Assembly (NCBI GenBank): GCA_041621915.1
Contig: JBFJZV010000003.1
Coordinates: 1 to 33,626, forward strand
DNA length: 33,626 bases
Source: Acidimicrobiia bacterium
GTDB taxonomy: Bacteria; Actinomycetota; Acidimicrobiia; Spongiisociales; JAOTWH01
Direction: 5' to 3'
The notes under the pieces were generated by a model. The model did not search any database. It was not told the origin of the DNA and worked only from the letters and a program-made list of their open reading frames with translations. Positions within the stretch are counted from its first letter, which is position 1. Each line of letters starts with the position of its first letter. Position numbers and translations under genes: made by a program. Below, piece after piece: positions 24,027 to 33,626 of this stretch.

Positions 24027-24636
24027 GGCGCGCCTCCCGGCACTCGGCGACGAAGTTGCCGAGCACCCGGAGCCCGGCGCCGGCGCTCCGCTCCGGATGG
24101 AATTGCACCCCATATCGGCGGCCGTCATGGACGGCCGCCGAGAAGACAGAGCCGTGCTCGGCCGTGCCGGTCACGATGGCCGGGTCCGTAGGGACGGGAG
24201 CGTACGAGTGCACGAAGTAGAAGGGCTCGCCGGACGAGATGCCCTCGAACAAGGGGTCGCGACGGAGCAGCGTGACGTCGTTCCAACCGATGTGGGGCAG
24301 GCGGGGAGCATCGCGGAGGCGCTCCACTCTTCCCGGCAGCAGCCCCAAGCACTCGGCGCCGTCCTCCTCGCTGGTCTCGAAGAACAGCTGGAGGCCTACG
24401 CAAATGCCCAGCAGCGGCCCATCCCACTCCCGCAGCGGCTCGACGAAGCCTGCGTCGCGGAGCCGCGCCATGGCGGCACCCGTCGAGCCGACTCCCGGTA
24501 GGACGATCCCGGCGGCGCCTTGCAGTTCGCCCGGGCCGGAGGCGACCGCCACATCGGCTCCAGCTCGGGTCAGGCCCTGGGCTATCGACACGAGGTTGCC
24601 GGCGCCGTGGTCGACGACGGCGATCGGGACGCTCAC
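24016..24636 (-). CDS. hisH: Imidazole glycerol phosphate synthase glutaminase subunit
   Basis: [25 protein letters not shown] and GVQFHPERS. Confidence 0.97.
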
Positions 24637-25217
24637 ACTGCGCCCTTGGTCGAAGCCACGCCCTCCCGACGCTTGTCGGGCGCCACGGCCGCCCGCAGCG
24701 CCCGGGCGAGCGCCTTGAAGGCTGCCTCGGCCACGTGGTGATCGTTGCGACCCGACGCTTGAAGGTGCAGCGTGATGCCCGCGGTGCGAGCGAGCGACTC
24801 GAGCGCATGGGGGATCATCTGCGTCGACAGTGCCCCGATCCGCTCGGCCCGGAGCTCCACGTCGATCTCGGCGTACGGCCGCCCGCCGACGTCGACCGCG
24901 CATCGGGCGAGCGCCTCGTCCATGGGCACGGCCGCGTCGCCGAAGCGGGCGATGCCGGACCTGTCGCCCAGCGCCTCTGCCAGCGCTTCGCCGAGCACGA
25001 GCGCGGTGTCCTCGATTGTGTGATGGTCATCGACCTCGGTGTCCCCGGTGGTGTCCACCGTGAGGTCGAACAGGGCGTGGTGGGCGACCGAGCCGAGGAG
25101 GTGGTCGAAGAACCCGACTCCGGTCTGCACCTGCGCCGTGCCGGTGCCATCCAGGTCGATCGTGATCCGCACCTCGGTCTCGGCGGTCTTGCGGTGCCGC
25201 TCGGCGCGACGGCTCAT
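24633..25217 (-). CDS. hisB: Imidazoleglycerol-phosphate dehydratase (monofunctional)
   Basis: RKTAET, TGVGFFDH, DDHHTIED, VPMDEAL, NDHHVAEAAFKA and STKG. Confidence 0.97.
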   Translation of the reverse strand: MSRRAERHRKTAETEVRITIDLDGTGTAQVQTGVGFFDHLLGSVAHHALFDLTVDTTGDTEVDDHHTIEDTALVLGEALAEALGDRSGIARFGDAAVPMDEALARCAVDVGGRPYAEIDVELRAERIGALSTQMIPHALESLARTAGITLHLQASGRNDHHVAEAAFKALARALRAAVAPDKRREGVASTKGAV

Positions 25218-26266
25218 GGCAGGTTCCTTTCGATGGCGTCCAGCAGGCGGTCGTGATCTGGTGGGGTGCGCACGGTGAACCGCAGGTAGCCGGTCAGCAT
25301 CCCGGCCTTGAAGCTGCGGACGACCAGTCCCTCGCCCATCAGCGCCCGCTCCAGATCGACGGCGTGCGGTCCCACCTCGCAGAGGAGGAAGTTCGTGTCG
25401 GAGGGCAGCACCCGGAAGCCGGCGCGGGCCAGCATCGCGCCTAGCCGGCTGCGCTCGGCGGTGATCGCGGCGACGTTGGCCTTGGCGATCTCCGGCTCGG
25501 CGAGCGCTCGGATGGCGAGCGCAGCCGACACCGCCGAGATGCTGCCCGGCGGGCGCAACGCCTCGAGGCGCGCGGTCAGTTCGGGCGAGGCGAGCGAGTA
25601 GCCGACCCGGATGGAGGCGAGCCCGAATGCCTTCGACATCGTGTGGAGCACCACCAGGTTCGGGTAGCGCTCCAGCCACGATGCCCAGCGGTCGCCGGTG
25701 AACTCGGCGTAGGCGGCGTCCAAGACGACGACCCCACTCGCCGCCGCGACGATCTCCTCGATGTCGGCGTCGGCGGCCCGCTGCCCGGTGGGGTTGTGGG
25801 GCTGGCAGAGGTACAGGAGGTGGCTGCGGACGGCGAGGTCGGCCAGGCCGGCGGCTGGGAGCGGGAAGTCGGGCGCCAGGCGGTCGACGGTCCGGAACTC
25901 GGCGGACTGCTGGGCGGCGGCAATGCGGTAGAGGGAGTACGCCGGGAGGTCGGCAGCCGCGACGCCGCCAGGGTCGAGCCATGCCTTGGAGGCGATGAGG
26001 ATGAGCTCGTCGGCGCCGGCGCCGACCATCACCTGCTGTGGCTCGACACCGGCGTAGGCGGCTGCGGCCTCCTTGAGGGGGCGGTAGTCGGCGGCGGGGT
26101 ATTCCGAGGCGCGGCGGGTTGCGGCGGCGGCTTCCTCCGCCACCCACGACGGTGCCTGTGGGGAGGTGTTGTGGTCGAAGCGGATCACCTCGTCCGGCGA
26201 GATGTCGGCGCGGGCTGCGATCTCGGCGGTGCCGGGCTGCCACTGGTATACGGGAAGCCCGGTCAT
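25214..26266 (-). CDS. hisC: Histidinol-phosphate aminotransferase
   Basis: GADELI, PHNPTG, LDAAYAEF and TMSKAFGLASIRVGY (PLP lysine). Confidence 0.95.
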   Translation of the reverse strand: MTGLPVYQWQPGTAEIAARADISPDEVIRFDHNTSPQAPSWVAEEAAAATRRASEYPAADYRPLKEAAAAYAGVEPQQVMVGAGADELILIASKAWLDPGGVAAADLPAYSLYRIAAAQQSAEFRTVDRLAPDFPLPAAGLADLAVRSHLLYLCQPHNPTGQRAADADIEEIVAAASGVVVLDAAYAEFTGDRWASWLERYPNLVVLHTMSKAFGLASIRVGYSLASPELTARLEALRPPGSISAVSAALAIRALAEPEIAKANVAAITAERSRLGAMLARAGFRVLPSDTNFLLCEVGPHAVDLERALMGEGLVVRSFKAGMLTGYLRFTVRTPPDHDRLLDAIERNLP

Positions 26267-27543
26267 GACGGCTCCTCTCGAAAGCGGACTTCGACGGCCA
26301 TCCGGTGGGCGGTGAGACCCTCGGCGGTAGCCAGCTCGCCGATCGTCGCCCGCAGTGCGGTGAGCCCCGCCTCGGTCAGCGTCTGCACCTGCCGCCACGA
26401 TCCGAAGTCCTCGACACCCAGCGGGCTCATCGCCGCGGCGGTGCCGCCGGTGGGGAGCACGTGGTTGGCGCCGCTTGCGTAGTCGCCCACCGGCTCGGGC
26501 GCCCAGCCGCCGACGAACACCGACCCGGCGGCGGTGAGGCGCTTGGCGTCGGTCTCCGGGTCGGCGGTGAGCAGGGTGACGTGCTCGGCGGCGTACTCGT
26601 CGGCGAAGGCAAGCGCGGCGTCGTGGTCGGGGGCGAGCACCAGCCACCCGTGGTCCTCCAGCGCCCGCTCCAGCACGTCCCGCCGCTCCAGCCCGGGGAG
26701 CAGGGCGTCGATCTCGACCGCGACGGCCTCGAGCAGGCCCGCGTCGGCGGTGACCAGCACGGCGGGGGAGTCGGGTCCATGCTCGGCCTGGCACAGGAGG
26801 TCGGCGGCGGCGTGGAGGGGGTCGGCCGAGCCGTCGGCGACCACCACCACCTCCGACGGGCCGGCCGGCATGTCGATGTCGACCTCGCCGAACACCGCCA
26901 GCTTGGCGGCCGTCACGTACTGGTTGCCCGGCCCGACGATCTTCTGCACTCGCCTCACCGTCTCGGTCCCATAGGCGAGTGCCGCGATGGCCTGCGCCCC
27001 GCCCATGGCCCACATCTCCCCGACGTCGAGCATGTGGGCGGCACCGAGCAGCGCCGGAGCCAGCACCCCGTCGGTGTCCGGGGCGGCCACGACGATGTCC
27101 TCCACCCCGGCGACTTGGGCGGGGATCACGGTCATCACCAGCGTCGACGGGTAGGCCGCCTTCCCGCCGGGCACGTACGCGCCGATCCGCCGCAGTGGCG
27201 CCCACCGCCGCTCGACGACGACCCCGGGCTCCACCTCCAAGCGCATGTCCTGCGGAGCCTGCGCCTCGTGAAACCGCCGGATGTTCCGCTCGGCGTGCGC
27301 CCGCGCACGCCGAAGCTCCTCCGAGAGCGAATCCCAAGCTTGGGCCATCTCCGCAGGATCGACCCTCCGAAGCCCACCCCCGTACCGCTCCGCAGCAGCG
27401 CGCACTGCTTCATCCCCACCCTCACGAACAGCTTCGACGATGGCTGAAGCCCGCGCACGGATGTCCGATTCGGGGACAGCCGACCGACGCAGGAGGTCGG
27501 CCCTCTCGGCTCGCCCGAGCGCAGCGAGGGTGAGACGCTTCAT
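26263..27543 (-). CDS. hisD: Histidinol dehydrogenase
   Basis: YVPGGKAAYPST, GGAQAIAALAYGT, GPGNQYV, IDMPAGPSE, QAEHG and GDYASGANHVLPT. Confidence 0.97.
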   Translation of the reverse strand: MKRLTLAALGRAERADLLRRSAVPESDIRARASAIVEAVREGGDEAVRAAAERYGGGLRRVDPAEMAQAWDSLSEELRRARAHAERNIRRFHEAQAPQDMRLEVEPGVVVERRWAPLRRIGAYVPGGKAAYPSTLVMTVIPAQVAGVEDIVVAAPDTDGVLAPALLGAAHMLDVGEMWAMGGAQAIAALAYGTETVRRVQKIVGPGNQYVTAAKLAVFGEVDIDMPAGPSEVVVVADGSADPLHAAADLLCQAEHGPDSPAVLVTADAGLLEAVAVEIDALLPGLERRDVLERALEDHGWLVLAPDHDAALAFADEYAAEHVTLLTADPETDAKRLTAAGSVFVGGWAPEPVGDYASGANHVLPTGGTAAAMSPLGVEDFGSWRQVQTLTEAGLTALRATIGELATAEGLTAHRMAVEVRFREEPS

Positions 27544-28403
27544 GGGATGAACTGCTCGATCGGGAGCACCAGGATGCCCGTGGCGCCCAGCGCGCGGAGC
27601 TCGGGCAAGATGCTCCACAGCCGGCTGGCGTCGACGACCGCTCGCACCGCGAGCAGGCCGTCGTCGGACAGGGGAACGATCGTCGGGTTCTCCAGGCCCG
27701 GGTCGAGGCCTTCCAACGCGCCGGCGGCCTCCGCCGGCACCTGCATGACGAGGTAGCGCTTGCGGCGGCCGGCGGCCACGGCCCGCAGCATCGTGGCGAC
27801 CGTGTGGATCTCGTGGTGGCGCCGCTCCAGCGCCTGGGGACCGGCGACCAGCACCGCCTGAGAGTCGAGCAGCGTCTCGATCTCCCGCAGCTCGTTCATC
27901 AGCAGCGTGCTTCCGCTGGACACCAGGTCCACGATGGCGTCGGCCAGCCCGAGCTTGGGCGCGACCTCCACCGAGCCGTGCAGGTGCACCAGCTCGATCG
28001 TGATGCCCTTGTCACGGAAGAAGCCCTCGACCACCCGCGGGTGGGAGGTGGCGATCCGCTGGCGGCGCAGGTCCTCGATCGACGTCACCGGGTCGTGGCG
28101 GGGTACGGCTACCGCCAGCCGGCACCGCCCGTAGCCGAGCTCCGCCAACACCTGGACATGCGCGTCGGCTTCGGCGACGAGGTCGGCGCCGCTGATGCCC
28201 AGCTCTGCGGTGCGGTCTGCGACCATCTCGGGGATGTCGTCGGTGCGGACGAACAGCAGGTCCATCTCCACGTTGCGCACCGGCACTGTGAGGGAGCGCG
28301 ACGTCAGCTCGAAGCTGAGCCCGGCGGCGCGGAGGAAATCGACGGTGGGCTCCTGCAGGCGTCCCTTGTTGGGGACTGCCAGGCGGAGGCGGCGCGCGGT
28401 CAC
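27540..28403 (-). CDS. hisG: ATP phosphoribosyltransferase, long form
   Basis: LAVPNKGRL, RTDDIP and GSVEVAPKLGLADAIVDLVSSGSTL, plus a C-terminal regulatory domain (ENPTI). Confidence 0.96.
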   Translation of the reverse strand: MTARRLRLAVPNKGRLQEPTVDFLRAAGLSFELTSRSLTVPVRNVEMDLLFVRTDDIPEMVADRTAELGISGADLVAEADAHVQVLAELGYGRCRLAVAVPRHDPVTSIEDLRRQRIATSHPRVVEGFFRDKGITIELVHLHGSVEVAPKLGLADAIVDLVSSGSTLLMNELREIETLLDSQAVLVAGPQALERRHHEIHTVATMLRAVAAGRRKRYLVMQVPAEAAGALEGLDPGLENPTIVPLSDDGLLAVRAVVDASRLWSILPELRALGATGILVLPIEQFIP

Positions 28404-28479
28404 GTGCCGGCCCTGGACGGGGTCGGAATGCAGCAGCGACGCTGGGAGGGCGGAAGTGGCACGGTGCGGGAGCCTCTGG

Positions 28480-28554
28480 TCAGCAGCGGCCGTGATGAAC
28501 CGCCGCGTGCGCGTGGCGCCGGGTGGGCCGCGGGAGCGTGGCGACGGTGTTCAT
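28480..28554 (-). promoter_or_regulatory. Candidate his operon leader peptide MNTVATLPRPTRRHAHAAVHHGRC (24 aa)
   Basis: Four His codons in the last 11 residues, directly upstream of hisG. TAACCT -10-like box at 28571-28566 and a C-rich spacer before hisG. Confidence 0.6.
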
Positions 28555-28568
28555 GCCTGCCATCGAGG

Positions 28569-30263
28569 TTAGTCGGCGGCCCGCCGCATCGACCAGTTCG
28601 CCACCAAGGTCCGCAGCCCGGCCAGCTCGCCGCTCAGCGGCCGATCCTCCAACAGCGGCGGGCTGACCTCCCGCACCGCTTCGTAGACCTGGCGCGTGCC
28701 TGCGCCGAGCCGGGCGGCGACGGAGACGCGGTCGCTCACGTGACCGGCGAACGCCTCGTCGTCGATCGAGCCAAGGGTCCGCCAGTCGACTGCTTGGGCG
28801 GCGACGAGCAGCTCCACGGCCAGAACGGCCTGGGCACGGCTGAGCATCGTCCGCAGCTTGCGGGCCGCAGTGGCCGACATCGACACGTGGTCCTCGATGT
28901 TGGCGGAGGTCGGGATGGAGTCGACCGAAGCCGGGTGTGCCAGCACCTTGTTCTCCGACACCAGTGCCGCGGCCGTGTAATGGGCCACCATCGCGCCCGA
29001 GTTGAGCCCGCCTTGGGGCGCCAGGTTGCGAGGCAGGCCCCCGTTGTGGTCGGGGTCGAGCAGCATCTGGGTTCGCCGTTCGGCGACGTTGGCCAGCTCG
29101 GCGACCGCGATGGCGGCCAGGTCGGCCGCCATCGCCACCGGCTGGCCGTGGAAGTTGCCGGCCGAGAACGCCCGCCGCGCCCCGCCGTCGTAACCAGCGG
29201 GCCAGTTGGCGGCGAACCCGAGGTCCCACGGGTCTTCGCCAGGGAAGAAGAGGGGGTTGTCGGTGGCGGCGTTGATCTCGATGCCCACGACCCGGCGGGC
29301 GTAGCCGAGGGCGTCGCGGCTGGCGCCGTGCACCTGTGGGGCGCAGCGGATCGAGTAGGGGTCCTGCACCTGGCCGCGGCTGTCGACGAGAGTGCTTCCC
29401 TCGACGAAGGAGCGGATGGTGGCGGCGCTGGCGACCTGTCCGGGATGGCCGCGAGCGTCCTGGGCCAGCGGGTCGAAGGCGCGAGCGGAGCCCGCCAGGC
29501 CCTCGAGCGTCAGTGCCGCAGCCGCGTCGGCGGCGTCGGCGAGCCGCTCCCCATCGTGGACGGCCAGCGCCAGCAGCGCAACCGAGACGGCGGTGCCGTT
29601 GATCAGGGCCAGGCCCTCTTTCGGCGCCAGCTCCGGTGGGTCGGCCCCGAGGTCGCCCGCCAGGCCGGCGGCGTCGCGCCACTCGGGGTGGCCGGCCACC
29701 GTGTAGCGGCCTTCGCCGATCAGCACCGCGAAGAGGTGGGCCAGCGGGGCGAGGTCGCCGCTGGCGCCCAGCGAGCCGTGCAGCGGGACCAGCGGCGCGA
29801 CGCCGCGGCCGATCATCGCCTGGAGCGTCTCTACCAGCACCGGGCGCACGCCGGAGTGGCCGCGCAGGAACGTGTTGAGCCGGATCACCAGCGCCGCCCG
29901 CACCACCTCGGCGGGGAGGTAGTTGCCCGGGTCGTCGAGGTCGGCGGTGTCGCCGATGCCCACACAGTGGCTCAGCAGCAGCCGCCGCTGCAGCTCGGCG
30001 AGGTCGTCGGGATCGAGGGGAACGTCCTTGAACGACCCGAACCCGGTCGTCACCCCGTACTCCAGGGCCGGGGCCCGGCCGGCAGCGCCGAACGACTCCC
30101 GGTACGCCGACAATGCCGCATCGACCTCGCGACGCCCTGCCATTACTCGCTCGACCGCCTCGGGCGTGATCTCCACTTGCCGGCTCGGGTCGCGCGCAAT
30201 GGCTACGAGGTCATCGACTGTCAGAGAGGTGCCGTCGAGGACGAGGGGGTTCCCGTCAGCCAC
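28569..30263 (-). CDS. hutH: Histidine ammonia-lyase (MIO-dependent aromatic amino acid lyase)
   Basis: YGVTTGFG, LLLSH (HAL-type selectivity pair), GSLGASGDLAPL (MIO-forming ASG), KEGLALINGT, QDPYSIRC, GNFHG and EDHVSM. Confidence 0.92.
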   Translation of the reverse strand: MADGNPLVLDGTSLTVDDLVAIARDPSRQVEITPEAVERVMAGRREVDAALSAYRESFGAAGRAPALEYGVTTGFGSFKDVPLDPDDLAELQRRLLLSHCVGIGDTADLDDPGNYLPAEVVRAALVIRLNTFLRGHSGVRPVLVETLQAMIGRGVAPLVPLHGSLGASGDLAPLAHLFAVLIGEGRYTVAGHPEWRDAAGLAGDLGADPPELAPKEGLALINGTAVSVALLALAVHDGERLADAADAAAALTLEGLAGSARAFDPLAQDARGHPGQVASAATIRSFVEGSTLVDSRGQVQDPYSIRCAPQVHGASRDALGYARRVVGIEINAATDNPLFFPGEDPWDLGFAANWPAGYDGGARRAFSAGNFHGQPVAMAADLAAIAVAELANVAERRTQMLLDPDHNGGLPRNLAPQGGLNSGAMVAHYTAAALVSENKVLAHPASVDSIPTSANIEDHVSMSATAARKLRTMLSRAQAVLAVELLVAAQAVDWRTLGSIDDEAFAGHVSDRVSVAARLGAGTRQVYEAVREVSPPLLEDRPLSGELAGLRTLVANWSMRRAAD

Positions 30264-31689
30264 GGCCCTGCTCGGCGAGGAGCTTCCTCACCTCGGCAAC
30301 GAGATCGGCCCGGGGCACTTCCCGCTGGCCGGGCCTGGCTGCGAGCCACTCCTCCCGATCGTCGACTTCGTCGGCGATCGCTTTGCCCGCCTCCATCTCC
30401 TTGAGGGTGACGACGCCGGACTCGTGCTCGTTGGAGCCGTACAGGATGCTGACCGGCACGCCGACCCGGTCGGCGTAGCGGAGCTGCTTGCCGAGCCCGC
30501 CTGCGTCGCCGAGGTAGTACTCGGCGTTGATGCCGGCTCGCCGCAACTCGTAGGTCATCGCCAGGTACTCGCCCTCCAGCGCCGGGTCGAGGCGGGTGAC
30601 CAGAACCTGCGACGTGGAGCGGCGCCCGCCGACCTTGCCGAGATGCACGAGAGCGGCCAGCAGCCGGTCAACGCCCAGCGACGCGCCGGTGGCCGGGATG
30701 TCCTCGCCGAGGAAGCGGCGGACGAGCTGGTCGTAGCGCCCGCCGCTGAACATCGACCCGAACTCGGGAGCATCGAGCAGCTCCATCTCGAACACCGGGC
30801 CCGTGTAGTAGGCGAGGCCGCGGGCGATGCTCGGGTCGAGGACCACCCGGTCGTCGCCGTAGCCGAGTGCGGTGAGGTGCCCGGAGATGCGGGCCAGCGC
30901 GTCGATCGGGCCGGCGGCGTGGTCCAGCCCGGAGAAGAGGTCGCGAAGCTGGTCGAGCACCGAGTCGCGGTCGTCGCCTCGGATGTCGAGGTACTGCCGG
31001 ATCTCGGCGACGGTGGCGGCTCCGAGGCCGAGGCCGTCGATGACGTCGCCCGACTCGTCCTTGTACCCGGTCGTCAGTTCGGCGGCCACCCGGTCCCAGC
31101 CGACCTTCTCGAGCTTGTCGAGCACGCGGAACACGTCGATGCCCTGTCCGGCGGGGATGGCGGCGTAGTCGAGCAGGAGGTCGAGCACGGCCCGGCTCGA
31201 CACGCGTACCTGGTAGCGGTCGACGCCGAGGCGGTCGAACGTGTCGCACATCCCGGTGATGATCTCGGTGTCGGCCACGTCGCTCTCGGTGCCGACGGAG
31301 TCGAGGTCGAACTGGGTGAACTCGCGGAAGCGGCCCTTGTCGGGCTTGTCGGCCCGCCACACCTGGGCAAGCTGGTAGCGGCGGAACGGGCGCGGCAGCT
31401 CCTGGTACTGGGCGACGAGGCGGGCGAGAGGCACCGTCAGGTCGAACCGGAGCCCGAGCTCGCCTTCGACCTTGCGGCTGGTCACCGTGAAGATCGACTG
31501 CTGCGCCTCCTGGCCGGCGGAGCCACTCAGCACGTCGAGGTACTCGATCGCCGGGGTGCTGATCGGGACGAAGCCGTACGACTCGTACACCGCCTTGGCG
31601 GCGCCGACGATGCGGTCCTGCTCGATCATCTCCTCGGGGAGCAAGTCGCGCAGGCCGCCAAGCAGGCGGGGGGTCACGAGATCAGACAT
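30256..31689 (-). CDS. hisS: Histidine--tRNA ligase (alphaproteobacterial/eukaryote-like type)
   Basis: LRFDLTVPLAR, motif 2 WRADKPDKGRFREFTQFD, ARGLAYYTG, GGRYD and SLGVDRL. The real start is ATG 31689; the longer ORF-track call runs through the tRNA. Confidence 0.96.
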   Translation of the reverse strand: MSDLVTPRLLGGLRDLLPEEMIEQDRIVGAAKAVYESYGFVPISTPAIEYLDVLSGSAGQEAQQSIFTVTSRKVEGELGLRFDLTVPLARLVAQYQELPRPFRRYQLAQVWRADKPDKGRFREFTQFDLDSVGTESDVADTEIITGMCDTFDRLGVDRYQVRVSSRAVLDLLLDYAAIPAGQGIDVFRVLDKLEKVGWDRVAAELTTGYKDESGDVIDGLGLGAATVAEIRQYLDIRGDDRDSVLDQLRDLFSGLDHAAGPIDALARISGHLTALGYGDDRVVLDPSIARGLAYYTGPVFEMELLDAPEFGSMFSGGRYDQLVRRFLGEDIPATGASLGVDRLLAALVHLGKVGGRRSTSQVLVTRLDPALEGEYLAMTYELRRAGINAEYYLGDAGGLGKQLRYADRVGVPVSILYGSNEHESGVVTLKEMEAGKAIADEVDDREEWLAARPGQREVPRADLVAEVRKLLAEQGRG

Positions 31690-31695
31690 GCGTCG

Positions 31696-31767
31696 TACCG
31701 AGGGGGAGAATCGAACTCCCATCTCTGGATCCACAATCCAGCGCTCTAGCCATTGAGCTACCCCGGC
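31696..31767 (-). tRNA. tRNA-His (GUG), no encoded G-1, discriminator A73, CCA not encoded
   Basis: Cloverleaf folded by hand: acceptor GCCGGGG/CCTCGGT+A, D-arm GCTC/GAGC, anticodon arm CTGGA-TTGTGGA-TCCAG, T-arm GGGAG-TTCGATT-CTCCC. Confidence 0.97.
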
Positions 31768-31777
31768 GCAGCGGTGC

Positions 31778-31783
31778 AGGATA
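31778..31783 (-). promoter_or_regulatory. Putative -10 box (TATCCT) for the tRNA-His-hisS-hutH unit
   Basis: TANNNT lies 10 nt upstream of tRNA position 1. No convincing -35 at canonical spacing. Confidence 0.5.
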
Positions 31784-31820
31784 ACGTGCGGCTCCTGCGG
31801 CAATAGGAGCGTACCGCCCC

Positions 31821-32564
31821 GTGCAAGTGATACCCGCGGTCGACGTGCTGGACGGGAGTGTGGTCCGGCTGCTGCGCGGCGATTTTGACGAGGTGACTCG
31901 GTACGGGCGCGACCCGGTCGCAGCAGTCCAGCGCTGGGTCGAGGAGGGCGCCGCACTGGTGCATGTCGTAGACCTGGACGGCGCCCGCGGCGGGGAGAGC
32001 GACGTGGCGCTGTGGCAGCGCCTGGGCGCGTCCGCGCTGCCGTTCCAGGTCGGCGGCGGCCTGCGGACCGTCGCCGCCGTCGAAGGCGCGGTCGCCGCCG
32101 GTGCGGCACGGATAGTCGTCGGCACCGCGGCGGTCTGGGACCCGGGGCTGCTCGCAGAGATGGTCGCCGCAGTCGGCGCGGCGCCGGTCGTGGCCGCAGT
32201 CGACGTGCGCGGTGGGCTGGCCGCCGGCGCCGGCTGGCGAGACCAGGGGCGGCCGCTCGAAGAGGTGCTGGCGGGAGTCGGGGGCGCCGGGGTGGGCCGC
32301 CTGCTCGTCACCGCCATCTCCCAGGACGGGACGATGGAGGGACCCGATCTCGGGCTGCTCGCCCGGGTACGGGCGCTTGCGCCCGAGTCGGCGCTCATCG
32401 CGTCCGGCGGGGTGGGGACGCTTGCGCATTTGCGCAGCCTGGCCGCTTCCGGCCTCGCGGAGGCGGCGATCGTGGGCCGGGCCCTCTACGAGGGGGCGTT
32501 CAGCCTGGCGGAGGCGCAAGCCGCCCTGCGTACAGGGCCACCGCCACCGCAGTCGCCAGGTTGA
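31821..32564 (+). CDS. hisA: HisA/PriA-family ProFAR isomerase
   Basis: QVIPAVDVLDGSVVRL, HVVDLDGA, QVGGGLRT, TAISQDGTMEGPD, IASGGV and IVGRALY. Confidence 0.95.
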   Translation: MQVIPAVDVLDGSVVRLLRGDFDEVTRYGRDPVAAVQRWVEEGAALVHVVDLDGARGGESDVALWQRLGASALPFQVGGGLRTVAAVEGAVAAGAARIVVGTAAVWDPGLLAEMVAAVGAAPVVAAVDVRGGLAAGAGWRDQGRPLEEVLAGVGGAGVGRLLVTAISQDGTMEGPDLGLLARVRALAPESALIASGGVGTLAHLRSLAASGLAEAAIVGRALYEGAFSLAEAQAALRTGPPPPQSPG

Positions 32565-33174
32565 GGCTCGACACGCCGGGGCGCATCGGGATCGCCACCA
32601 CCCGGTCGGCTCGGGCCATGAGCTCGCACGACAGGCCGCGCCGTTCCGACCCGAACGCCAGGACGGGGCGTTCGGGCAGCGCCGTCAACGGCTCGCCGGC
32701 GGGATCGAACGCCACGAGCGGCCGTCCGGACGCGGGCACCTCGTCGATCCTCGCCACCGGGACCGCGTAGTGGAGGCCGGCCGCGCCTCGCAGCGCGTTG
32801 GCGTGCCACGGGTCGAGGGTGCCCGAGGTGAGCACGGCGGCGGCGCCGGCAGCCGAGGCGACCCGGACCACCGCCCCCACGTTGCCGTGGCGGGTCGGGT
32901 GCTCGAGGAAGACCACCGGGTCAGGGCCCGCCACCGCGGCGGCGATGTCGACGGAAGGTGGGTCGGCCTCGGCGACCACTCCGCGCCCCTCGTCGTCACC
33001 GTCCTGGACGAGCTCGGCGAGCCGGTCCAAGAGGTCCGGGGCGAGGTCGGCGGCCAGGGCCAGCAGCGCGTCCCGGTCGCTGGTCGAGGCCGAGCGGATG
33101 GTCGCCCCGAACCGCAGCGCATGCTTCACGGCGTGGAACCCCTCGAGCCGGACCGTCAGGCGTCCCGCAGCCAT
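32500..33174 (-). CDS. TrmH/SpoU family RNA methyltransferase
   Basis: SPOUT motifs HGNVGAVVR, FGSERRGL and IPMRPGVSSLNLATA. Confidence 0.9.
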   Translation of the reverse strand: MAAGRLTVRLEGFHAVKHALRFGATIRSASTSDRDALLALAADLAPDLLDRLAELVQDGDDEGRGVVAEADPPSVDIAAAVAGPDPVVFLEHPTRHGNVGAVVRVASAAGAAAVLTSGTLDPWHANALRGAAGLHYAVPVARIDEVPASGRPLVAFDPAGEPLTALPERPVLAFGSERRGLSCELMARADRVVAIPMRPGVSSLNLATAVAVALYAGRLAPPPG

Positions 33175-33626
33175 AGCGCCAGAGGCGGGTTCGCCGACAC
33201 GGCCACACCGCCGGCGACCTCCTCGGTGAGCGCGAACCCGGCGATCTCGCCGCTCACCAAGAAGGGCGCAACCCGGGGCTCGGGCCCGAACACGCCCGCC
33301 GAGATCACCTCGTCGCCGACGATCGCCCAGAGCTGGTACGTCCGGTCGGCCCCGAGCGCAGGAAGATCGGCGTCGAGGTAGCCGACGCCGTCGGGCAGCA
33401 GCGTGATGCTGGCGGCCACCGGCTCGCCGTCGGGGGTGGCGAGCGGAAGCACCTCGGCACCGGGGGTAGTGACCGCCGTGGCGTAGGCGTCGTCGACCGA
33501 GGCCCGATCGGAACGGAGGGCGGTTGCCCCCACCACCGCCACCGCCGCGATCGCCGCCGCCGCCGCCAAACCGCCGAGCCACACGGCCGGGCGGGGGAGG
33601 CGGCGAATCCCGGTGGCGGGCACCAG
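33156..33626 (-). CDS. Anti-sigma factor (RskA-like), partial, N-terminus outside the window
   Basis: TM helix followed by LPAL..DRTYQLWAI...SAGVF...FALTEEVAGG, typical of RskA C-terminal domains. Confidence 0.82.
   Translation of the reverse strand: MVPATGIRRLPRPAVWLGGLAAAAAIAAVAVVGATALRSDRASVDDAYATAVTTPGAEVLPLATPDGEPVAASITLLPDGVGYLDADLPALGADRTYQLWAIVGDEVISAGVFGPEPRVAPFLVSGEIAGFALTEEVAGGVAVSANPPLALWLRDA

Follow-up and report, generated by a model that had tools for sequence, protein, structure and literature searches.

A tRNA-His/histidyl-tRNA synthetase cassette without G-1 and its probable displacement of the native histidine pair in a genus of Acidimicrobiia

The window analyzed here is a 33,626-nucleotide (nt) stretch, positions 1 to 33,626 of contig JBFJZV010000003.1 in the Acidimicrobiia bacterium assembly GCA_041621915.1 (G000; 3.08 Mb in 271 contigs, 72% G+C, 74.6% complete, with 2.4% estimated contamination). 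It harbors a tRNA-His gene with no encoded G at position -1 (G-1), directly followed by hisS, encoding histidyl-tRNA synthetase (HisRS), and by a gene for histidine ammonia-lyase (HAL), the three lying as one block among the histidine biosynthesis (his) genes (Table 1). The tRNA/HisRS pair is very probably the only histidine system of the organism, acquired as a cassette by horizontal transfer. An earlier note, made from the sequence of the window alone, had pointed to the unusual tRNA and to a HisRS of alphaproteobacterial type in an apparently actinobacterial genome. The best named matches of the G000 RpoB are 'Acidimicrobiia bacterium' proteins at 84 to 86% identity, and the actinobacterial assignment therefore holds.

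TABLE 1 Positions and supporting evidence for the features in and around the cassette
Feature	Position	Strand	Evidence
tRNA-His(GUG), no encoded G-1	31696..31767	-	ARAGORN, Rfam RF00005 (71 bits), sequence
tRNA position -1 = C (canonical bacterial genes: G)	31768..31768	-	sequence
Six-base spacer CGACGC, A73 to hisS ATG	31690..31695	-	sequence
hisS, 477-aa HisRS, no-G-1 type	30256..31689	-	Pfam, NCBIfam, alignment, trees
HAL gene, hutH type, 564 aa; third gene of block	28569..30263	-	PF00221, TIGR01225
hisG-hisA span holding the inserted tRNA-His/hisS/HAL block	28404..31820	.	tblastx synteny with L209, L210
Native long-form hisG, heads the resident his operon; now downstream of cassette	27540..28403	-	PF01634 + PF08029, NCBIfam
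Native hisA-like gene, divergent from cassette; other insertion border	31821..32564	+	PF00977, TIGR00007 188 bits (below cut-off 228.95)

ARAGORN placed a minus-strand tRNA-His(GUG) at 31695..31767, and the Rfam tRNA model matched 31696..31767 with a score well above its gathering score of 29. The acceptor stem consists of G1:U72, C2:G71, C3:G70, G4:C69, G5:U68, G6:C67, and G7:C66, with G1 at 31767, U72 at 31697, and the discriminator A73 at 31696; the next bases are C-G-A, so CCA is unencoded. No G-1:C73 pair was present in any register. An alternative register with 31767 as G-1 was rejected, as it needs a C1·A72 mismatch and yields no G-1:C73 pair. ARAGORN, Rfam, and reading of the sequence thus agree on the C at position -1, the G1:U72 pair, and A73, as the earlier note had it. 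The D-loop, AATGGCTA, is 8 bases long, with C and U between G19 and A21; in the numbering that we infer, G19 is followed by two bases, as in tRNAs with U20a, and there is one base fewer before G18. The six-base spacer to hisS is too short to hold either a leader of its own or a Shine-Dalgarno sequence.

The HisRS matched PF13393 (E value of 1e-45; 156.7 bits against a cut-off of 25), PF03129 (1e-11; 45.3 bits against 21), and TIGR00442 (331.1 bits against 286.75), and both the class IIa core and the anticodon-binding domain are complete. The hisS ATG at 31689 corresponds to the start residue in 10 aligned homologues and is therefore supported. The enzyme was aligned with 19 others, namely, those of Escherichia coli, three canonical Acidimicrobiia, four alphaproteobacteria (Rhodobacter, Paracoccus, Sinorhizobium, and Methylobacterium), three Thermoanaerobaculia, and an independent same-genus assembly (G001; 71% complete), plus seven of other types. 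The stretches singled out in the earlier note, RFDLTVPLAR, WRADKPDKGRFREF, and DREEWLAARPGQ, are all present, as is the lack of the motif 2 Gln: in the motif 2 loop, DKPDKGR, the canonical Gln is replaced by Asp117, where E. coli has ERPQKGR, the alphaproteobacteria EKPGPGR, and two of the three aligned Thermoanaerobaculia DKPGPGR. Two inserts were also identified. One of 12 to 16 residues in the insertion domain (GYKDESGDVIDGLGL, about residues 207 to 222) has a counterpart only in the alphaproteobacterial enzymes. The other, of about 19 to 22 residues (…DEVDDREEWLAARPGQREVPR, about 437 to 458), aligns with an insert of the alphaproteobacterial enzymes of the Rhodobacterales, Rhizobiales, Caulobacterales, and Hyphomonadaceae (RRCH) and is absent from the 11 other aligned HisRS. 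The alphaproteobacterial likeness that the earlier note saw in a C-terminal extension is thus real, but DREEWLAARPGQ is an insertion within the anticodon-binding domain in the alignment and not an extension.

A maximum-likelihood tree was built from 34 rows chosen from 48 usable ones (supports are given as ultrafast bootstrap/Shimodaira-Hasegawa approximate likelihood ratio test [SH-aLRT] values). A Streptomyces plasmid copy and Haladaptatus were omitted for their long branches, and G002, G018, G035, G039, G298, and seven Thermoanaerobaculia rows as redundant; G025 had already been dropped for a faulty open reading frame (ORF). Nineteen rows formed a no-G-1 HisRS clade (100/99), comprising subclade A (the four alphaproteobacteria, G259, and G595; 100/100) and subclade B (the Thermoanaerobaculia, other Acidobacteriota, and this genus; 100/96). 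Within the latter, the gene studied here and that of G001 grouped with seven Thermoanaerobaculia (100/98). The canonical Acidimicrobiia HisRS grouped with E. coli on the opposite side of the tree, and no grouping of the cassette enzyme with them was found. Quick trees of 38 and 44 rows concur, with an SH-aLRT of 99 for the no-G-1 clade in both. The alphaproteobacterial type proposed in the earlier note is therefore correct only at the level of the larger clade: the enzyme falls in subclade B and not in the alphaproteobacterial subclade itself, and its nearest relatives are Thermoanaerobaculia (63 to 67% identity, versus 40 to 44% for the alphaproteobacteria).

Among 40 same-order relatives, only G001 possessed this HisRS (83% identity); G031 had a 41% match, and the rest gave local matches of 24 to 39%. 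In 301 genomes of the class Acidimicrobiia, a match above 45% identity was found in G000 only. Local identity to the canonical HisRS of relatives was 24 to 36%, and solved structures of the canonical type in the Protein Data Bank (PDB) scored 81 to 96 bits. The highest-scoring PDB entry of any type reached 198 bits, so that there is no closely related solved structure. A third HisRS type was also observed in the class (L004, which is G031, and L173 to L176; 14 of the 301 genomes), being 36 to 44% identical to the cassette enzyme and without the anticodon-domain insert; it groups with the Embleya, Vescimonas, and Paraclostridium enzymes, and G031 has it together with a canonical-looking tRNA-His (91% BLAST match).

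The best 80 genome loci for this HisRS (L045 to L124) were all titled Thermoanaerobaculia, Acidobacteriota, or Holophagales, with HisRS identities of 63 to 67%. A tRNA-His gene was located directly upstream of hisS on the same strand in 70 of them, and two of the 10 exceptions had less than 250 nt of upstream sequence. All 70 linked tRNA genes have G1 and U72, with A73 in 64 and G73 in six. Position -1 was T in 46 genes, G in 16, and C and A in four each; varying over all four bases, it is therefore unconstrained. Apart from one outlier of 1,617 nt, the CCA end and hisS were separated by 6 to 139 nt, the median distance being 49.5 nt. A HAL homologue, 50 to 62% identical to that of G000, directly followed hisS at 73 of the 80 loci, three of the seven exceptions having less than 260 nt of downstream sequence. 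This tRNA type precedes this HisRS type both in G001 and at 70 of the 80 loci, so the pairing is no chance coincidence; the suggestion in the earlier note that tRNA and synthetase are kept together as a cassette can thus be retained, with HAL added as a third member. A 9-base D-loop ending in GGTTA was found in 29 of 44 distinct Thermoanaerobaculia tRNA-His sequences and was exactly AGTTGGTTA in 23.

In four large Thermoanaerobaculia genomes, the hisS-linked tRNA was the top match to the tRNA-His model (90 to 102 bits); among the 29 matches in these genomes, 20 were found on examination to be other tRNAs, and five lay outside the examination (the model gave 35 matches in total, including six in G259). 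In the one genome checked for the purpose (G319), the second HisRS-like match was hisZ, followed by a short hisG. A sample of 301 genomes from the phylum Acidobacteriota contained eight with a match of 63 to 67%, four with 50 to 53%, one with 44% that reached the insert region, and 50 with a 35 to 42% match of another type, the other 238 having no match at an E value of ≤1e-50. Five divergent Acidobacteriota genomes were also inspected, and a linked tRNA (T at -1, G1, U72, and A73) was present in four and HAL in three. Linkage between hisS and hisG was observed to recur in three arrangements: hisS linked directly to hisZ-hisG in Rhodobacter sp. CZR27 (L160; NZ_CP023549.1), hisZ-hisG about 10 kb downstream of hisS in G319 (L208), and the cassette in front of hisG in G000.

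The flanks of the cassette are native to the host. The his genes on both sides are collinear with those of Acidimicrobiia relatives at 57 to 77% identity, so the contig is not foreign. The operon continues after hisG with hisD, hisB, and hisF, extending to about 23229; hisG itself is 57 to 63% identical to, and collinear with, hisG of G003, G006, G008, and G012, and 65 to 71% identical pieces of the hisA-like gene lie beside hisG in G003 and G008. These divergent neighbors are about 450 nt apart in G003 and about 390 nt apart in G008, compared with 3.4 kb in G000 with the cassette. G001 has the identical gene order (tRNA-hisS-HAL-hisG). Short Logan contigs from other studies bridged the junctions without differences (three studies for hisG/HAL, two for HAL/hisS, and one for tRNA/hisA).

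A single tRNA-His was present among the 50 tRNAs identified by ARAGORN in G000, along with a single HisRS-like gene. Canonical tRNA-His genes were sought with a covariance model and by BLAST using the canonical tRNA-His of a relative. The covariance model (R1) was not specific for tRNA-His: in relatives, only other tRNAs lay at 12 of its 30 best-scoring loci. BLAST with the linked tRNA-His as the query had been tried and was replaced by these searches, since the hits checked in relatives (L016 and L017) were tRNA-Asn and not tRNA-His. Canonical tRNA-His genes read in 16 relatives encoded G-1 and C73 in all 16 and stood at the end of the conserved tRNA gene cluster Leu-Lys / Pro-Gly-Arg-His. 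By BLAST, the canonical gene was detected in 36 of 41 genomes of the order and not in G000, G001, G003, G006, or G020 (these tallies include the unpublished genomes G011 and G022, on neither of which any conclusion depends). Contig C181 of G000 carries the Leu-Lys / Pro-Gly-Arg cluster followed by trigger factor, with a 98-nt spacer after tRNA-Arg, versus 168 nt with tRNA-His in G004.

The place of the native synthetase gene could likewise be located. The canonical order in G004 is a metallo-β-lactamase (MBL)-fold gene, hisS, aspS, and MgsA, and at the corresponding syntenic position in G005 and G002 hisS adjoins an aspS-like gene; hisS-aspS takes up about 3 kb in the three genomes. In the collinear region of G000 (contig C28), MBL and MgsA are 87 nt apart, and contig C8 of G001 matched this empty junction in one piece at 83% identity over 1,297 nt. 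Both ancestral loci are thus assembled and empty, which argues against a second histidine pair; the second tRNA-His and second hisS that the earlier note had proposed to look for are missing from the G000 assembly. Insertion into the native his operon together with deletion of the native tRNA-His and hisS bears out the horizontal acquisition that it had suggested as one of two origins.

The aspS gene was lost with the native hisS, and the only aspartyl-tRNA synthetase (AspRS) gene of G000 is at C73:6219-7994 (L224:2717-4495, minus strand). This AspRS shares 43 to 50% identity with the hisS-linked AspRS of 18 relatives, 82% with that of G001, and 63 to 71% with 'Actinomycetota bacterium' and 'Iamia sp.' proteins. 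Given its distance from the hisS-linked type of the relatives, a second synthetase seems to have been replaced by one of a different type.

A further case in the class was found in G259 (L172; C1:3915091-3919521), a 99%-complete, one-contig genome of 4.6 Mb from another Acidimicrobiia order with a single HisRS. This enzyme belongs to the alphaproteobacteria-like subclade, with the motif EKPGPGR and the RRCH-specific insert, and its gene is preceded, at a distance of 66 nt, by a tRNA-His gene that has C at -1, G1:U72, and A73; HAL is absent there. As the cassettes of G259 and G000 are of different subclades, the class acquired the cassette on two or more occasions and from different sources.

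The HAL matched PF00221 (E value of 1.8e-169) and TIGR01225 (550.9 bits; cut-off, 539.15), and the first 8 bases of its gene are shared with the end of hisS. Its translation contains GASGD, of which the ASG is presumably the Ala-Ser-Gly triad that forms the 4-methylideneimidazole-5-one (MIO) cofactor. The cassette copy is the only HAL in G000, and urocanase is encoded elsewhere (contig C159). A histidine-degrading enzyme cotransferred with hisS and tRNA-His thus now stands at the head of the histidine biosynthesis operon, a linkage for which no explanation was found.

A promoter and terminator scan of positions 27400 to 32100 returned no promoter-like and no terminator-like sites. Over positions 27000 to 33626, the Rfam search at E values up to 1 returned the tRNA alone; neither a leader nor a T-box nor any other regulatory RNA was found. 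Two minor features of the window can be added. The 536-amino-acid ORF at 24633-26243 (minus strand) matches the imidazoleglycerol-phosphate dehydratase (hisB) family only over residues 374 to 516, and its N-terminal two-thirds probably result from extension of the ORF, in a high-GC frame, across a different his gene. ARAGORN also called a 98-base 'tRNA-Ile(GAT)' at 33492-33589 (minus strand) that was not recovered by the Rfam tRNA model at E values up to 1 and sits inside long ORFs at 33156-33626; this call is probably a false positive.

Systems of this kind are already known; what is new is their presence in these host phyla, their physical organization as a cassette with HAL, and a documented case in which the native pair was displaced. 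For the Caulobacter crescentus pair, Yuan et al. (2011; PMC3064791) describe an experimentally shown identity set of the anticodon, U72, A73, and U20a, no improvement in charging on addition of G-1, and an insert in the anticodon domain of the enzyme, which they proposed to read the anticodon. The motif 2 Gln versus Gly rule and the RRCH clade are described in PMC3937112, where the trait serves as a one-off synapomorphy in alphaproteobacterial phylogeny. Bacterial exceptions are limited to some alphaproteobacteria in a 2023 review of tRNA identity (PMC9976931). Phage and alphaproteobacterial 8/4 tRNA-His have been described (PMC5389517), and an alphaproteobacterial pair has already been used as orthogonal in E. 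coli (PMC11551756). No report of a G-1-less tRNA-His or of this HisRS type in Acidobacteriota or Actinomycetota was found in the full-text literature, subscription papers and supplements being outside the search.

The G000 pair resembles that of the RRCH in having no encoded G-1, the G1:U72 pair, A73, and, in the numbering that we infer, an apparent extra base after G19/N20, and in a HisRS that lacks the motif 2 Gln, carries both inserts, and shares one clade with four RRCH enzymes. It differs in its enzyme (sister subclade, 40 to 44% identity, Asp instead of the RRCH Gly, and no RRCH insert TFEILDEKGRKRQ), in its actinobacterial host, and in its arrangement: here the tRNA abuts hisS, which is followed by HAL, whereas at none of four RRCH loci was a tRNA found within 2.5 kb of hisS. 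Control tRNA-His genes of Sinorhizobium and Methylobacterium, with T at -1, G1:U72, and A73, were far from hisS. The Thermoanaerobaculia loci, on which no publication was found, share the HisRS type (63 to 67%), the gene order, and the acceptor-end features of the tRNA. They differ in that CCA is encoded in the tRNA genes, in the D-loop of the tRNA, which is mostly the 9-base AGTTGGTTA, and in that a short HisG and HisZ are encoded about 10 kb downstream, while the G000 block heads a long-form hisG operon. The HisRS of Acanthamoeba castellanii and Trypanosoma brucei likewise achieve histidine identity without G-1 and without Thg1, but these are eukaryotic cytoplasmic systems that reportedly arose from Thg1 loss (PMC4338351 and PMC3561963) and have no linked gene cassette. 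The canonical bacterial system (PDB 1KMM and 4RDX; PMC4357726) has the same class, domains (PF13393 and PF03129), and anticodon, but its G-1:C73 is retained by RNase P and its HisRS is of the E. coli or Thermus thermophilus type, the identity elements being opposite.

Taken together, the data are best explained (at a probability of roughly 0.8) by a sole histidine decoding pair that follows a G-1-independent rule and arrived by transfer from a Thermoanaerobaculia-like source, the native pair then being deleted. On sequence grounds, Thermoanaerobaculia and not alphaproteobacteria are the likely donors. A 3.2-kb block of tRNA-His, hisS, and HAL would have passed from a Thermoanaerobaculia-like acidobacterium into an ancestor of the genus, where it inserted between hisG and hisA, in front of the his operon. 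The resident G-1:C73 tRNA-His gene would have been deleted later, as would the hisS-aspS operon native to the genome. The tRNA and hisS are predicted to be made as one transcript. RNase P would cut at +1, leaving a 7-bp acceptor stem, because C-1 is unable to pair with A73; the general behavior of RNase P at an unpaired position -1 underlies this expectation. A 3' cut after A73 would free the tRNA for CCA addition and leave the hisS mRNA nearly leaderless, with a leader of at most 6 bases. By analogy with Caulobacter, HisRS may read the GUG anticodon (through the anticodon-domain insert), U72, and A73 rather than G-1:C73.

Several observations weigh against this interpretation. Loss from the tRNA-His slot is confirmable only in G000, as the Pro-Gly-Arg cluster is not contiguous in the G001 assembly, and at 74.6 and 71% completeness the two assemblies leave room for a second pair in the part of the genome that they lack. 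The predicted mature 5' end and G-1-independent charging are extrapolated from a related enzyme that is only 40 to 44% identical. The motif 2 residue is Asp and not the Gly described for alphaproteobacteria, and the D-loop has 8 bases instead of the 9 described for the alphaproteobacterial group. The branching between this genus and the Thermoanaerobaculia is a three-way split, and no close donor (HisRS identity above 68%) was found in the homologue searches. The composition of the cassette is the same as that of its flanks (third-position G+C content of 0.90 to 0.94 versus 0.85 to 0.93), from which it follows that the transfer is old or that the donor had a similar composition.

It is improbable that the cassette is an auxiliary extra copy, serving regulation of the his operon or a specialized product, with the canonical pair encoded in the unassembled quarter of the genome. 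The incompleteness of both assemblies fits such a reading, as do the location of the cassette in a his biosynthesis operon, the existence of nontranslational HisRS paralogues (HisZ, for example, near hisS in Thermoanaerobaculia), and additional hisS copies on Streptomyces plasmids. However, the tRNA-His slot (C181) and the hisS-aspS slot (C28) are both assembled and empty, the latter in G001 as well, and neither genome has a match to a canonical tRNA-His or a second HisRS; the enzyme, complete with its anticodon-binding domain, exceeds the equivalog cut-off for hisS, and the 99%-complete G259 manages with one HisRS of this type and the no-G-1 tRNA linked to it. An assembly or binning artefact, by which an acidobacterial cassette was misplaced in an Acidimicrobiia metagenome-assembled genome, is extremely unlikely: it would account for the exclusively acidobacterial nearest relatives of both HisRS and HAL and for the 2.4% estimated contamination, but not for the collinear hisG/hisD/hisF and hisA on the same contig, the same order found independently in G001, the bridging of all three junctions by contigs of other studies, or a HisRS that is just 63 to 68% identical to any acidobacterial one.

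Posttranscriptional addition of G-1 opposite A73, as carried out in eukaryotes, by a Thg1-like 3'-5' polymerase would leave identity dependent on G-1. That A73 is the eukaryotic discriminator facing the Thg1-added G-1 (PMC6191723) and that human cytoplasmic HisRS scored 167 bits, against 81 bits for E. coli HisRS, among solved structures are in line with this route. It is nevertheless considered very improbable, as no Thg1-like gene (PF04446) was found in six cassette-bearing genomes (G000, G001, G259, which is 99% complete, G318, G319, and G321) in a search whose Methanosarcina control was positive. The absence of the motif 2 Gln and the presence of the Caulobacter-type insert, in a system in which added G-1 gave no gain in charging (PMC3064791), and the unconstrained position -1 of the 70 linked genes also speak against it. 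A history with no transfer, by vertical inheritance from an old Acidimicrobiia lineage or by convergent loss of G-1, is equally hard to credit. It would suit the lack of a foreign compositional signature, the long branch to the genus (0.32), and the presence of at least three HisRS types within the Acidimicrobiia; set against these, G002, G004, G005, and G007 of the same family have a canonical tRNA-His, the first three keep hisS-aspS where G000 has an empty locus, relatives have hisG and hisA adjacent without the block, and the gene nests with Thermoanaerobaculia, which share the three-gene order tRNA-hisS-HAL.

Beyond the sole-pair interpretation, a broader and more tentative idea, to which we give somewhat less than an even chance, is that the linked tRNA-His/hisS, with or without HAL, is a self-sufficient, horizontally mobile 'identity cassette' that can coexist with and then displaces the G-1 pair, and has done so several times in unrelated phyla, the alphaproteobacterial case being one more descendant of a transfer of this sort and not the single source of the trait. 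Coexistence would be possible because the two systems ignore each other. The G-1 rule would then have been overwritten in lineages of Acidobacteriota, in this Acidimicrobiia genus, and separately in G259.

G-1 on tRNA-His is among the most conserved tRNA identity marks, and the same change of rule is now seen in Acidobacteriota and Actinomycetota, with the tRNA and its enzyme traveling as one physical unit. The assumption that this change arose once is thereby weakened. A cell would be able to swap its whole histidine identity system, and in G000 the place of insertion and the scars of both deletions can still be recognized, making it a natural, datable example of the replacement of an essential tRNA/synthetase pair. 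The loci described here may also provide many new candidate pairs orthogonal to hosts of the G-1 type.

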